From Escherichia coli (lineage in GTDB: Bacteria > Pseudomonadota > Gammaproteobacteria > Enterobacterales > Enterobacteriaceae): 41,409 bases of DNA. Both the position numbers and the translations under genes were made by a program. The notes below the pieces were generated by a model, which made no database searches, was not told where the DNA came from, and saw nothing but the letters and a program-made list of their open reading frames with translations. This document shows, one piece after another, positions 24,677-37,389 of this stretch; position 1 is the first letter of the stretch; each line of letters opens with the position of its first letter. Where the stretch lies: the NCBI RefSeq assembly GCF_003334385.1, contig NZ_QOWN01000039.1; one strand, given 5' to 3'.

Positions 24677-25096
24677 TTATCTCTCAAGTTCGTTCAGTGC
24701 ATTTTTGACACGCTCTCTTAAACCGGCTTTCTCTTCGCTTTCTTCCACAGTATTTTCTTCGTCTTCAGAAGAAGAGGGGGCATTCTCAACCGCGACGCCT
24801 GGGTCATCTTCCTCCTCGACGGATTCGACGACGGGGAGTGGCTGTTTTTTGAAGAAATAGTGTTGTGTTGATTGTTTAAAAGCGGGCGTTTCAGCCTCTA
24901 CAGTGACTTCGGCTTTTACTATCCAAAGCACCCATAGCTGCCTGGCATACCCACCAACCAGCACCATTCCTGCAAACCACAGGCAAATCAGTAATAAACA
25001 AATTACATATATTATGGTGCTGTGTTTTTGTCGGGAGAAGATACCAGGGTGACCTGTTTCTTTCTGCTCACGCGCGGCGATATAGAATTCAAACAT
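24677..25096 (-). CDS. gspB: GspB-type T2SS accessory protein, 139 aa (bitopic, acidic Glu/Asp-rich C-terminal region)
   Basis: One predicted TM segment (IYVICLLLICLWFAGMVLVGGY), acidic tail; 1-nt gap after gspA. Confidence 0.75.
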   Translation of the reverse strand: MFEFYIAAREQKETGHPGIFSRQKHSTIIYVICLLLICLWFAGMVLVGGYARQLWVLWIVKAEVTVEAETPAFKQSTQHYFFKKQPLPVVESVEEEDDPGVAVENAPSSSEDEENTVEESEEKAGLRERVKNALNELER

Positions 25097-25097
25097 G

Positions 25098-26567
25098 TCA
25101 TTTCCCCTTCACTGTTGTTTCCGGGGAAATATTTGCTTCATCCCGATATAAGTAGGCACTCTCCCCTGCCACCTGCCAGAGATGTACTAACGTTGAAAAG
25201 CCAACAACACCGTCAGTTTTCAAGTGGTGGCTTTTTTGAAATTGCTTTATTTTTTCTACCAACAAGGGACGCCACTCCGCCGAAGGTTCTGTCGAAATAT
25301 GCAATGCGCGGTTTAACATCGTTTCCAGCCAGAGAATCTCTTCCTCGCTGCTATCACGCGTAATGGTACTCTCCCCTTCCGGCGACATTTTCCACAACAG
25401 AAGATAATCACCCGTCCATACCGACTCAAACCATTTATGTGTCAGCGTCCACGTTTGCTGACCTACGAGGACATCAACGCTAGCCTCACCGACGCGAACG
25501 ACCACAACAGGCAATTTTTTGTCCCCGACTTTAAGCGATGCGATCCAGGGCAAATTCTGATCTACCAATGTTTGTAAAGAAGCATTCCCACTTTTACATG
25601 CCAGCCCCGCTCTTACTGCCTGATCGCACCAGGCCGAATCAGCTGGGACCTCGTACCCCCATACGCCGTATAACACGCTTAGCGCCTCACTATCGCGCAT
25701 CACCACATGAGCAATATCCTTAGTCATATCTTGTTTAACTACTGGCGTTACGGGTATCAGCCACGCAGGAACGGGTAACGTAGCTGTAAAAGAGGACAGC
25801 AGTAGCCAACCACAGGTAAGAGCGATAATGGTTCCACTCATCACCACGGCAAGCTGCATTTTCCGGGGGCGGTTATCACCCAATATGCGGTAAATCATTC
25901 GCCATTGTTTTGCTGTGAAAACGCTGGTCTGCTCGGCTTGCTGTAATAAGCGAATTGTTTCGCCGGCAAGCGCCAGCTTTCTGCGATCGCCCCGACATAA
26001 TAAAGCTATCCGTTTCAGAACTCTGGCGGTTAAAAGGAGATCGGGTTGGTCAATATTCTGACCTTCAAGGATGCTTGCCTTAAGTTCGTGCTCCGTCAGA
26101 CGTCCTATCGAGACAAGTTCAATGCCCTGTTTTTTAAAATCACGTTCGACTTTTCGATCGGGTCTGCCGATCAGCAAAAATTGACCGTCAGGAATAAGAG
26201 ATATTGCGCGTTGGAGATCATCAAGTATGCGGCGGTGATTCAGGTGAGCATTTTCAATAATAATAAGAGGGCAGCGACTATCAGTTCGATGAAGCGCATG
26301 CAGTAATTGCCCCGCCATCTCATCTCGCGTCCAGGCGCTGTCACGGCAGCCCTGTTCAGCCGCGTTATCGTCGGTAACGATCCATGCGGCCTTACCTTGC
26401 CAGGAAACAACGAGGCTTAAAGTAATCACACGGCGATGTTTATCTTTTTGCAGTTGCTGCGCCAGCCAGGTTTTTCCACTTCCAGCCTCACCCAACAAAT
26501 AGCATAGACGCCAGGTTTGACGTTTCTCACACAACCAGGAAAGAATAACTTCTCTTCTCGTAGACAT
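25098..26567 (-). CDS. gspA: GspA/ExeA-type AAA ATPase T2SS accessory protein, 489 aa
   Basis: Walker A GEAGSGKT near the N-terminus; central TM segment; putative peptidoglycan-binding C-terminal region. Confidence 0.8.
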   Translation of the reverse strand: MSTRREVILSWLCEKRQTWRLCYLLGEAGSGKTWLAQQLQKDKHRRVITLSLVVSWQGKAAWIVTDDNAAEQGCRDSAWTRDEMAGQLLHALHRTDSRCPLIIIENAHLNHRRILDDLQRAISLIPDGQFLLIGRPDRKVERDFKKQGIELVSIGRLTEHELKASILEGQNIDQPDLLLTARVLKRIALLCRGDRRKLALAGETIRLLQQAEQTSVFTAKQWRMIYRILGDNRPRKMQLAVVMSGTIIALTCGWLLLSSFTATLPVPAWLIPVTPVVKQDMTKDIAHVVMRDSEALSVLYGVWGYEVPADSAWCDQAVRAGLACKSGNASLQTLVDQNLPWIASLKVGDKKLPVVVVRVGEASVDVLVGQQTWTLTHKWFESVWTGDYLLLWKMSPEGESTITRDSSEEEILWLETMLNRALHISTEPSAEWRPLLVEKIKQFQKSHHLKTDGVVGFSTLVHLWQVAGESAYLYRDEANISPETTVKGK

Positions 26568-35087: not shown

Positions 35088-36254
35088 GTGATGCCTGAAT
35101 CGTTGATGGTCATACGTTCTTCCTCGACGCTGCGTAAGCATTGGGAATGGATGACGTTCTCCGCAGATAGCGTATCTTCGGTACATACGCTCACGGACGA
35201 TCTTCCGCTGGAGTCGCTGGCCGATCAGCCCGGTGCCGGAAATGTTCATCTTTTGATCCCACCAGAGGGCCTTTTATATCGTTCCCTCACGCTGCCCAAC
35301 GCCAAATACAAACTCACCGCACAAACATTACAATGGCTGGCAGAGGAGACGTTACCCGACAACACCCAGGACTGGCACTGGACGGTTGTCGATAAACAAA
35401 ACGAAAGTGTCGAGGTGATAGGCATTCAGTCGGAGAAACTCAGTCGCTATCTTGAGCGTTTACATACTGCCGGACTCAACGTGACGCGGGTTTTGCCAGA
35501 TGGCTGCTATCTTCCCTGGGAAGTAGATAGCTGGACTCTGGTTAACCAGCAAACAAGCTGGCTCATTCGCAGTGCCGCACATGCCTTCAACGAACTGGAT
35601 GAACACTGGTTACAGCATCTTGCTGCCCAGTTTCCGCCTGAGAATATGCTTTGTTATGGTGTAGTACCTCACGGCGTTGCAGCGGCCAATCCACTTATCC
35701 AGCATCCTGAAATACCATCACTGAGTTTGTATTCTGCCGATATTGCATTCCAGCGCTATGACATGCTGCATGGTATTTTTCGTAAACAGAAAACTGTAAG
35801 CAAATCGGGAAAATGGCTCGCCCGCCTGGCAGTAAGCTGTCTCGTTCTCGCCATTCTTTCTTTTGTTGGCAGCCGGAGCATCGCGCTCTGGCATACGCTT
35901 AAGATTGAAGATCAACTTCAGCAACAACAGCAAGAAACCTGGCAACGTTATTTCCCGCAGATCAAACGCACCCACAATTTTCGTTTTTACTTTAAGCAGC
36001 AACTCGCTCAGCAATATCCTGAAGCTGTGCCGTTGCTCTATCATTTACAAACACTTCTGCTGGAACACCCTGAACTGCAGTTAATGGAGGCGAACTATAG
36101 CCAGAAGCAAAAGTCGCTGACCTTAAAAATGAGTGCTAAGAGTGAAGCTAATATCGATCGTTTCTGTGAGTTAACACAGTCCTGGCTTCCGATGGAAAAA
36201 ACAGAAAAAGATCCGGTCAGTGGTGTATGGACAGTAAGGAACTCAGGGAAATGA
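35088..36254 (+). CDS. gspL: T2SS inner-membrane protein GspL, 387-388 aa (start at 35088 or 35091)
   Basis: ORF begins MMPESL (two adjacent Met codons); bitopic GspL-like. Confidence 0.85.
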   Translation: MMPESLMVIRSSSTLRKHWEWMTFSADSVSSVHTLTDDLPLESLADQPGAGNVHLLIPPEGLLYRSLTLPNAKYKLTAQTLQWLAEETLPDNTQDWHWTVVDKQNESVEVIGIQSEKLSRYLERLHTAGLNVTRVLPDGCYLPWEVDSWTLVNQQTSWLIRSAAHAFNELDEHWLQHLAAQFPPENMLCYGVVPHGVAAANPLIQHPEIPSLSLYSADIAFQRYDMLHGIFRKQKTVSKSGKWLARLAVSCLVLAILSFVGSRSIALWHTLKIEDQLQQQQQETWQRYFPQIKRTHNFRFYFKQQLAQQYPEAVPLLYHLQTLLLEHPELQLMEANYSQKQKSLTLKMSAKSEANIDRFCELTQSWLPMEKTEKDPVSGVWTVRNSGK

Positions 36255-36712
36255 TTAAATCATGGTGGGCAGAAAAATCCACATCGGAAAAACAGATCGT
36301 TGCGGCACTGGCGGTTCTCTCGCTCGGCGTTTTTTGTTGGCTTGGGGTGATAAAACCGATAGATACCTACATTGCAGAGCATCAGTCCCACGCGCAAAAA
36401 ATTAAGAAGGACATCAAATGGATGCAGGATCAAGCGAGCACCCATGGTTTACTCGGTCATCCTGCGCTTACGCAGCCCATCAAAAATATCCTTCTCGAGG
36501 AAGCAAAACGTGAGAATTTGGCTATCACGCTGGAAAACGGCCCGGACAATACTCTGACAATTCATCCTGTCACAGCTCCCCTCGAAAACGTCTCCCGCTG
36601 GCTCACTACGGCACAGGTAACATACGGTATTGTTATTGAAGACCTTCAGTTTACTCTTGCCGGAAACGAAGAGATCACCCTCAGGCATTTGTCCTTCAGG
36701 GAGCAACAATAA
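36251..36712 (+). CDS. gspM: T2SS inner-membrane protein GspM, 153 aa
   Basis: MIKSWWAEKSTSEKQIVAALAVLSLGVFCWLGVI at internal Met 9 of ORF 36227..36712; ATGA overlap with the gspL stop. Confidence 0.8.
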   Translation: MIKSWWAEKSTSEKQIVAALAVLSLGVFCWLGVIKPIDTYIAEHQSHAQKIKKDIKWMQDQASTHGLLGHPALTQPIKNILLEEAKRENLAITLENGPDNTLTIHPVTAPLENVSRWLTTAQVTYGIVIEDLQFTLAGNEEITLRHLSFREQQ

Positions 36713-37389
36713 TGACAATGCTACTGCCGCTCTTCATTCTGGTTGGTTTTATTGCAGGTTATTTTGTTAATGCCATCGCCTATCACCTCTCGCCGTTGGA
36801 GGATAAAACGGCGTTAACGTTTCGCCAGGTATTGGTTCATTTCAGGCAAAAAAAATATGCCTGGCATGATACAGTGCCCCTGATACTTTGTGTTGCTGCT
36901 GCTATCGCCTGCGCCCTGGCACCTTTCACGCCCATCGTGACTGGCGCACTCTTTCTCTATTTCTGTTTCGTACTCACGCTCAGTGTTATTGATTTTCGCA
37001 CTCAGCTCCTGCCCGACAAACTCACCTTACCGCTGCTCTGGCTTGGCTTGGTATTTAATGCGCAGTATGGATTAATTGATTTACATGATGCGGTTTACGG
37101 CGCGGTAGCGGGCTATGGGGTGCTGTGGTGTGTTTACTGGGGCGTCTGGTTAGTTTGTCACAAAGAGGGATTGGGCTACGGTGATTTCAAGCTACTGGCC
37201 GCTGCAGGCGCATGGTGTGGCTGGCAAACGTTGCCAATGATACTGCTGATTGCCTCGCTGGGTGGCATTGGTTACGCCATCGTTTCACAACTTCTGCAAC
37301 GCCGGACTATAACCACTATCGCATTCGGCCCGTGGCTTGCGCTCGGCAGCATGATAAACCTGGGGTATCTGGCCTGGATCTCTTATTAA
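36712..37389 (+). CDS. gspO: Prepilin leader peptidase / N-methyltransferase GspO, 225 aa
   Basis: Polytopic membrane protein; start overlaps the gspM stop by 1 nt, leaving no room for gspN. Confidence 0.88.
   Translation: MTMLLPLFILVGFIAGYFVNAIAYHLSPLEDKTALTFRQVLVHFRQKKYAWHDTVPLILCVAAAIACALAPFTPIVTGALFLYFCFVLTLSVIDFRTQLLPDKLTLPLLWLGLVFNAQYGLIDLHDAVYGAVAGYGVLWCVYWGVWLVCHKEGLGYGDFKLLAAAGAWCGWQTLPMILLIASLGGIGYAIVSQLLQRRTITTIAFGPWLALGSMINLGYLAWISY

Follow-up and report, generated by a model that had tools for sequence, protein, structure and literature searches.

The stretch of Escherichia coli DNA analysed here comprises 41,409 nucleotides (contig NZ_QOWN01000039.1 of RefSeq assembly GCF_003334385.1; hereafter the window). 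It carries the genes of a type II secretion system (T2SS, Gsp) at positions 24677-37389, bounded exactly by the stop codons of gspB and gspO, and beyond them the genes bfr, bfd, and chiA (Table 1). A preliminary description made from the sequence had reported fourteen intact gsp open reading frames (ORFs), arranged as gspAB divergent from gspC-O and packed tightly between the S10 operon and bfr. All 14 ORFs lie where they had been placed; a check for frameshifts and stops by re-translation revealed no internal stop in any of them, and in a search run for each ORF every one matched its Gsp family. The divergent arrangement is borne out by the coordinates and strands of the ORFs, the gspA-gspC spacer measures 179 nt as had been given for it, and the flanking genes are indeed rpsJ of the S10 operon (24128-24439, minus strand) and bfr.

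The whole window is collinear with the chromosome of K-12 MG1655 (NC_000913.3 from 3428832), with only eight mismatches in 41,409 nt (window positions 265, 1138, 10576, 33035, 36758, 38181, 40854, and 41128), and the locus can therefore be equated with the published T2SS-alpha of E. coli. Two of the mismatches fall within gsp, one being silent (gspH) and the other leading to the exchange D16G in GspO. The 13.3-kb gsp segment is 100.0 % identical to that of strains such as PK6 and SCPM-O-B-9504, and RefSeq annotates the same 14 genes in the identical loci. The placement is that of T2SS-alpha, i.e., the rpsJ-bfr interval with gspAB divergent from gspC-O and chiA past bfr-bfd, and an identical account of its location and layout has been published (PMC3032704). 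We regard it as almost certain that the locus is the K-12 form of the chromosomal T2SS-alpha (Gsp) of E. coli, accompanied by its cargo gene chiA. The preliminary description, which had named the K-12 Gsp cluster and called the system a described rather than a novel one, was right in this: the locus at 24677-37389 is an already described system, a textbook locus re-identified, and nothing new by itself. New with respect to the known locus are the delimitation of the strain-variable block to which it belongs, the evidence that this block is replaced as a whole, and a test for selection on the gsp genes.

Eight single-base differences rule out MG1655 itself as the source of the window, which comes from a K-12-like strain of phylogroup A.

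Table 1 Features of the gsp region and its surroundings (positions in the window; aa, amino acids)
Feature	Position	Strand	Basis
S10 operon promoter: -35 TTGCGT (24644-24639), -10 TATAAT (24622-24617)	24617..24644	-	alignment
Whole strain-variable block, 16,638 bp: gspBA, gspC-O, bfr, bfd, chiA	24624..41261	.	
gspB, 139 aa, putative GspA partner	24677..25096	-	NCBIfam NF007250, 287 bits (cut-off 180)
gspA, 489 aa, AAA-type ATPase, secretin assembly factor of ExeA type	25098..26567	-	Pfam
gspA/gspC divergent control region, 179 bp, 77 % A+T	26568..26746	.	sequence composition
gspC, 271 aa, GTG start, inner-membrane component contacting the secretin	26747..27562	+	TIGR01713, 293.6 bits (cut-off 101.6)
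gspD, 650 aa, outer-membrane secretin GspD-alpha, Klebsiella type	27546..29498	+	TIGR02517, 649 bits
gspE, 493 aa, cytoplasmic assembly ATPase	29508..30989	+	TIGR02533, 656.8 bits (cut-off 630.25)
gspF, 398 aa, polytopic inner-membrane platform protein	30986..32182	+	TIGR02120, 548.7 bits
gspG, 145 aa, major pseudopilin	32192..32629	+	TIGR01710, 184 bits
gspH, minor pseudopilin	32637..33146	+	TIGR01708, 170 bits
gspI, minor pseudopilin	33143..33520	+	TIGR01707, 132 bits
gspJ, minor pseudopilin	33513..34100	+	TIGR01711, 63.2 bits (cut-off 64.85; E = 2.7e-17)
gspK, 327 aa, large tip pseudopilin	34093..35076	+	NF037980, 251 bits
gspL, inner-membrane platform, GspE anchor	35091..36254	+	TIGR01709, 148 bits
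gspM, inner-membrane platform	36251..36712	+	Pfam T2SSM, E = 5.8e-38
gspO, 225 aa, prepilin peptidase	36712..37389	+	Pfam Peptidase_A24, residues 82-190
bfr, iron storage, outside the secretion machine	37418..37894	-	TIGR00754
bfd, iron-storage gene, outside the secretion machine	37966..38160	-	NF007803
chiA, 897 aa, secreted endochitinase/lysozyme, known cargo	38329..41022	-	Pfam, PDB chitinase matches
chiA upstream region, A+T-rich, 70-79 % A+T per 100-nt window	41023..41261	-	
tufA terminator hairpin, right limit of detectable divergence	41263..41290	-	terminator scan and alignment

Gene layout and component proteins

Within each operon the genes overlap or are separated by at most 14 nt: gspA and gspB are spaced by 1 nt, and the junctions from gspC to gspO amount, in order, to -17, +9, -4, +9, +7, -4, -8, -8, +14, -4, and -1 nt. 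The tight packing noted earlier is thereby confirmed, coupling being understood here as a description of the layout only. For gspD, gspI, gspL, and gspM, the mechanical ORF list extends the 5' ends, and the starts annotated by RefSeq in the identical loci were used. No Shine-Dalgarno-like sequence is present in the 20 nt upstream of the GTG start of gspC (ATTTTATTAGAACATACATC), and the alignment to the family model begins only at residue 17 of the protein. Neither gspN nor the pilotin gene gspS was found in the cluster; gspM runs into gspO with an overlap of 1 nt, and outside the named genes no ORF of at least 60 aa is left unassigned. Both gspN and gspS are variable among T2SS and do not define them. 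When the cluster was called "complete but reduced", the first term was justified, the 12 core components plus GspAB being present; the second applies only loosely, to the missing gspN and in-cluster pilotin, to a GspO without an N-terminal Cys-rich domain, and to a GspB without a recognisable domain.

Only 32 nt (24645-24676) separate the stop codon of gspB from the -35 hexamer of the S10 promoter, the hexamers of which we assigned by their position upstream of rpsJ. As no terminator-like hairpin lies in between, derepressed transcription of gspAB would read into the S10 promoter and the operon behind it.

GspB, C, D, E, F, G, H, I, K, and L score above the curated cut-offs of NCBIfam equivalog models, whereas GspA, GspM, GspO, and ChiA had no NCBIfam match and were all resolved by Pfam. 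GspD shows the Pfam architecture of a T2SS secretin, consisting of an N0 domain, three Secretin_N domains, and the Secretin domain, and its best match in the PDB is 5wq7, the solved GspD of K-12, with 1356 bits over residues 24-650, the next being 6hcg with 723 bits. GspE has the motifs of the assembly ATPase, i.e., Walker A at residue 249, the Walker B/Asp box at 314, the His box at 335, and CPQC/CPHC at 382/415. The inner-membrane platform is represented by GspC, GspF, GspL, and GspM, as identified by TIGR01713, TIGR02120, TIGR01709, and Pfam T2SSM, respectively. Among the pseudopilins, the leader of GspG reads ...QRG↓FTLLE and those of GspG-J follow the pattern G↓F/M-TLLE (the arrow marking the cleavage site), as expected for this class of proteins; in GspK the corresponding sequence is G↓VALL and Glu at +5 is absent. 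A PDB sequence search with GspJ found nothing. An identity as type IV pilus system was considered and rejected, since GspC, GspL, GspM, GspK, and a secretin with N0-N3 domains are present and the T2SS equivalogs far outscore the pilus models.

GspO retains both catalytic aspartate contexts of A24 peptidases (D94 in IDFRTQLLPD and D158 in GYGD). An N-terminal A24 domain was not recovered by Pfam even at E <= 10, and neither a CxxC motif nor the Cys-rich domain is found in the protein, so that N-methylation of the pseudopilins may not occur. The N-terminal Cys-rich (methyltransferase) domain is common in peptidases of the PilD/PulO type and is dispensable for the definition of a T2SS. GspA is composed of AAA_22, GspA_C39-like, and PG_binding_1 domains and has a Walker A motif (GEAGSGKT) at residue 26. 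A single hydrophobic segment is predicted in GspB, whose C-terminal third forms an acidic tail of low complexity and does not resemble the periplasmic domain of ExeB/OutB; the protein is matched only by an E. coli-specific NCBIfam model.

Cargo, control regions, and proposed mechanism

ChiA possesses a Sec signal peptide (...ALPALA↓MEA), CBM5/12 modules, and a GH18 domain, according to Pfam and inspection of the N-terminus. In A+T content, the gspA-gspC spacer (77 %) and the chiA leader (70-79 %) exceed all other tracts of the window, a composition that is consistent with silencing of the promoters of gspA/gspC and chiA by H-NS. The claims that the gsp genes are silenced and that their products secrete ChiA reportedly originate from Francetic & Pugsley 1996 and Francetic et al. 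2000. As related in passages of citing papers, the gsp genes of K-12 are cryptic and repressed by H-NS (PMC5797941, PMC2649431, PMC10329019, PMC3707838, PMC3032704, PMC11390585), and the derepressed system secretes the endochitinase ChiA, whose gene is also silenced by H-NS (PMC5797941, PMC2649431, PMC10329019, PMC3707838, PMC11390585). Silence, H-NS repression, and secretion of ChiA upon derepression had been put forward in the preliminary description, in agreement with these passages. The spacer furthermore holds the published SlyA box (TTACTAATATAA, plus strand), and the primers TC59 and TC60 used for the electrophoretic mobility shift assay (EMSA) of PMC5797941 coincide exactly with both ends of 26568-26746. 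In that study, SlyA bound the 179-bp gspA-gspC fragment in EMSA, and gspCDEF were up 2.4-fold under SlyA over-production (PMC5797941).

The following mechanism takes its steps from established T2SS knowledge and the K-12 literature. Both gsp operons would start in the 179-bp spacer, where H-NS would silence them and SlyA could act as counter-silencer, leaving the system off in laboratory culture. ChiA would be exported to the periplasm by Sec via its signal peptide and fold there. GspO would cleave the leaders of GspG, GspH, GspI, GspJ, and GspK, and the GspE ATPase would dock at the inner-membrane platform formed by GspL, GspM, GspF, and GspC. Driven by GspE, a short GspG pseudopilus capped by GspK-I-J-H would be assembled, which would push ChiA through the GspD secretin of the outer membrane. 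GspA, with its ATPase and peptidoglycan-binding domains, and GspB probably help the secretin multimer to cross the cell wall.

Several observations count against this view of the locus and are set against its almost certain identity here. GspJ remains 1.6 bits below the curated NCBIfam cut-off; GspB has no Pfam domain and no PDB sequence match, its role being one of analogy with ExeB/OutB; GspO is devoid of the methyltransferase-bearing N-terminal domain of PilD-type enzymes; and silencing as well as ChiA secretion rest on secondary citations.

Consensus scans for promoters and terminators yielded 19 and 21 sites against 19.6 and 19.5 in shuffled sequence, i.e., no excess, and were used only for locating the tufA hairpin. 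At the gathering threshold of Rfam, the sole match in the window is Alpha_RBS, the alpha-operon leader upstream of rpsM (13608-13719, minus strand; 102.7 bits), with none in the gsp block.

Two forms of the tufA-S10 interval in E. coli

The distribution of the locus was determined in 5,426 complete E. coli genomes, with presence defined as a coverage of at least 80 %. Positions 1-24400 of the window are present in 5,426 of 5,426 genomes versus 3,119 of 5,426 (about 57 %) for the gsp segment, which bears out the earlier statement that the gsp system is the only accessory region of the window; chiA is present in 3,113 genomes versus the 3,119 for gsp. A short form of 1.5 kb is found in 2,254 of the 5,426 genomes (about 42 %), and about 53 genomes fall outside both forms. 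The short form, e.g., in strain ECONIH1 (L002 9225-10756), has the gene order rpsJ, a gene for a 155-aa prepilin peptidase, bfr, bfd, and tuf, and no chiA.

A blastn comparison of ECONIH1 with the window gave 99.8 % identity up to position 24623, 77 % over bfr-bfd, and 98 % from position 41262. The left limit of detectable divergence, 24624, is thus located directly upstream of the -10 hexamer of the S10 promoter, and the right limit, 41261, beside the tufA terminator hairpin. The -35 and -10 hexamers of the S10 promoter are kept in both forms and the 16-nt spacer between them differs; the true crossover points may sit further out, within the invariant flanks. Brandis et al. predicted that insertions into the translation supercluster would be bordered by the last terminator and by the first element of the promoter (PMC6735719), as is the case for this block. 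The gsp genes had been described as wedged between the S10 operon and bfr, which is correct for the flanks and understates the unit: the variable block does not stop at bfr but reaches the tufA terminator, and the variable unit of 16,638 bp comprises bfr, bfd, and chiA in addition to gsp.

In the searchable literature, the short form is described as a deletion only, and the genome paper of E. coli W states that short-form strains simply lost the stretch from gspB into the 5' part of gspO (the "gspO-rpsJ deletion"; PMC3032704), i.e., a plain case of presence and absence. The short form does have a peptidase gene at the position of gspO that spans only the C-terminal two thirds of GspO. However, this peptidase is merely 41 % identical to the corresponding part of GspO and gives no blastn match; bfr-bfd are only 77 % identical in DNA between the forms (90 % for the Bfr and 88 % for the Bfd protein), with a synonymous divergence (dS) of 1.5 for bfr and past saturation for bfd, as against dS values of 0.03-0.14 for gsp genes within the species; and chiA, which lies beyond bfr-bfd, is gone too, all this between flanks of 98-99.8 % identity. 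A deletion of recent date within E. coli cannot yield this pattern, although an ancient one in another lineage could have made the short block, and we consider simple deletion very unlikely. Because of these differences, the short form is, judged from the sequence comparison, a replacement of the whole segment and not the simple deletion of the literature.

The orphan peptidase of the short form (hopD-like, A24 family, 155 aa; L002 9419-9886 and L088 679-1146) keeps both catalytic aspartate motifs. Its gene overlaps the stop codon of bfr by 4 nt and shows a ratio of nonsynonymous to synonymous divergence (dN/dS) of 0.27 between two E. coli copies (17 substitutions). Rather than being a remnant, the protein may function as a minimal prepilin peptidase.

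Selection on the long form was assessed against strain E302, which is 97.3 % identical. The dN/dS values are 0.04-0.10 for gspD, E, F, G, J, K, and B and 0.15-0.67 for the remaining gsp genes, the highest being that of GspM (0.67, based on 10 substitutions only); for gspO the collinear value is meaningless, as the E302 copy is frameshifted. From dN/dS values of 0.04-0.67 we conclude that the gsp genes are maintained by selection and that the cluster is not decaying. Were it a decaying relic whose ORFs are intact through chance or recent descent, its silence in K-12, as the passages cited above have it, would be readily understood, as would the GspM value and the sporadic inactivation in other strains, which comprises the gspO frameshift in E302 (L084 16513-17185), an internal stop in gspM of the adherent-invasive E. 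coli strain NRG 857C (L087 923-1384), and insertions of IS3, IS100, and IS1 elements within the long block elsewhere (matches H1, H9, and H12). Yet all 14 ORFs are intact here and also in the divergent strains AHB2 and GPEC1209, the core genes combine a dS of 0.06-0.14 with a dN/dS of 0.04-0.10, the catalytic motifs are all retained, and the same literature passages report functional proteins and ChiA secretion after derepression. Such a relic is hardly conceivable on these data.

Concerning the origin of the block, there is in our judgement about an even chance that the stretch from the tufA terminator to the S10 promoter represents a two-allele segment replacement rather than presence or absence of gsp, the T2SS having been imported jointly with its cargo gene and a foreign bacterioferritin pair and being exchanged between lineages by recombination in the near-invariant ribosomal-protein and tuf genes. 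As part of this proposal, the long and short alleles would share only bfr-bfd, two genes that differ as between genera, and both alleles would be old within the species. The long block was most likely imported whole from another enterobacterial lineage into an early E. coli lineage, an entry that would have occurred via homologous recombination in the ultra-conserved flanking translation genes.

A contig scan with Bfr as query listed matches from 80 species representatives of the Enterobacterales, with "Escherichia sp. ESNIH1" as the only Escherichia and no Salmonella. Among these listed representatives, the site tuf-bfd-bfr-X-rpsJ occurs in three states. X is empty in Xenorhabdus, Photorhabdus, Proteus, Providencia, and Erwinia; it is an orphan peptidase gene in Kluyvera, Pluralibacter, Silvania, Buttiauxella, Hafnia, Raoultella, and others; and it is a full gsp cluster in Yokenella, Chimaeribacter, Enterobacter sichuanensis, one Citrobacter amalonaticus, and Rahnella, without chiA in the DNA examined, as well as in Trabulsiella and UBA5654, where chiA lies beside bfd-bfr-gspO. 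In Kosakonia oryziphila, the contig ends at a gspO-like peptidase gene that follows chiA, bfd, and bfr. Salmonella carries bfd-bfr-hopD, i.e., the orphan-peptidase state (PMC6735719). Of two genomes labelled C. amalonaticus, S646 has a full gsp cluster by bfr and AUH_CA_2023_1 the orphan peptidase only (L009, L017); as these two genomes differ at the site, the same dimorphism may exist outside E. coli. The metagenome-assembled genome Citrobacter sp. HRGM_Genome_0066 (L004, a 17-kb contig) was the best match of the Bfr scan and carries the E. coli long block (bfr 99 % at the nucleotide level, ChiA 97 %, GspK-O 95-98 % at the amino acid level); it was rejected as donor, being probably a mis-binned E. 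coli contig.

Among the matches listed, the short bfr allele is nearest to Citrobacter (about 85 % nucleotide identity) and the long allele to UBA5654 and Yokenella (about 81 %), with which it groups in a neighbour-joining (NJ) tree without bootstrap. It could be argued conversely that the long block is the original state of E. coli and that the short one arrived from a relative resembling Citrobacter or Salmonella. This reverse direction would suit the occurrence of the long form in phylogroups A and B2, the latter branching early, its species-typical diversity of about 3 %, and the presence of a T2SS at exactly this site in several genera. Against it speak the identity of about 85 % between the short bfr and Citrobacter, which is about the distance expected from vertical descent, the identity of the long allele of at most 81 % to anything sampled, its grouping outside the Escherichia-Citrobacter cluster, and the bfd-bfr-hopD arrangement of Salmonella (PMC6735719). 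We hold an original long block to be rather unlikely. The import of the long block is itself weakened by the fact that the direction of transfer hinges on one gene of 477 nt, an unbootstrapped NJ tree, and a sample without other Escherichia species or Salmonella.

Phylogroups A and B1 are close relatives, and B2 is early-branching. With T2SS-alpha present in A and B2 and near-absent from B1 and O157 according to the literature, and with O157 as outgroup to the non-pathogenic strains in the tree cited there, more than one switch between the forms is needed if these relationships hold.

For pan-genome and association studies of E. coli in which gsp, chiA, bfr, and bfd serve as markers, it follows that the four should be treated as one linked dimorphic block. 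In a genome-wide association study (GWAS) of mastitis, bfr and bfd were listed as accessory genes co-segregating with gsp and chiA (PMC11390585), and we attribute their scoring as "accessory" to the divergence of the long and short alleles. Apparent effects of bfr or bfd may be hitch-hiking on this allele divergence and not reflect gene presence. More generally, the block shows that ultra-conserved flanking operons are able to anchor recombination by which a whole accessory system is swapped.

Comparison with known systems

The closest known system is that of K-12 MG1655, consisting of gspAB and gspC-O (b3322-b3335) together with chiA (b3338). Genes, order, coordinates, and flanks are identical, the sequence of GspD is that of PDB entry 5wq7, and the silent gspH change and the GspO exchange described above are the only differences inside gsp.

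The Pul secreton of Klebsiella oxytoca and Klebsiella pneumoniae (pulS, pulAB, pulC-O) is likewise organised in two divergent operons with a cargo gene nearby and has a secretin of the Klebsiella type; PulD (6hcg, 723 bits) is the best structural relative of GspD outside E. coli. In contrast to Pul, the cluster of the window lacks gspN/pulN and an in-cluster pilotin gene pulS, and its divergent operon encodes the GspA/GspB assembly factors rather than cargo. The E. coli homologue of PulS-OutS, YacC, is encoded elsewhere (Dunstan 2013), its gene being located outside the window. GspA shares the architecture of Aeromonas ExeA, an ATPase with a peptidoglycan-binding domain. Compared with ExeB of Aeromonas and OutB of Dickeya, GspB of K-12 is short (139 aa), without a detectable Pfam domain or solved relative, and its interaction with GspD is putative. 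A pilotin-independent route has been proposed for secretins of the ExeAB type, and GspAB were suggested to help the secretin to cross the peptidoglycan (Yu et al.).

T2SS-beta, the second system of E. coli (yghJ/sslE-pppA-yghG-gspC-M at pheV; found in enterotoxigenic and enteropathogenic E. coli and in strain W), is the same type of machine and is built from the same component families. It differs in its locus, a Vibrio-type secretin, the pilotin AspS/YghG, its own peptidase PppA, and its cargoes, heat-labile toxin (LT) and SslE, and its secretin GspD-beta (5zdh) matches GspD of the window less well (545 bits). Finally, according to the published description, Salmonella has a hopD-bfr-bfd insert where its str and S10 operons adjoin (PMC6735719); this insert corresponds in position and gene order to the short block of E. 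coli, whereas the window carries the long one.

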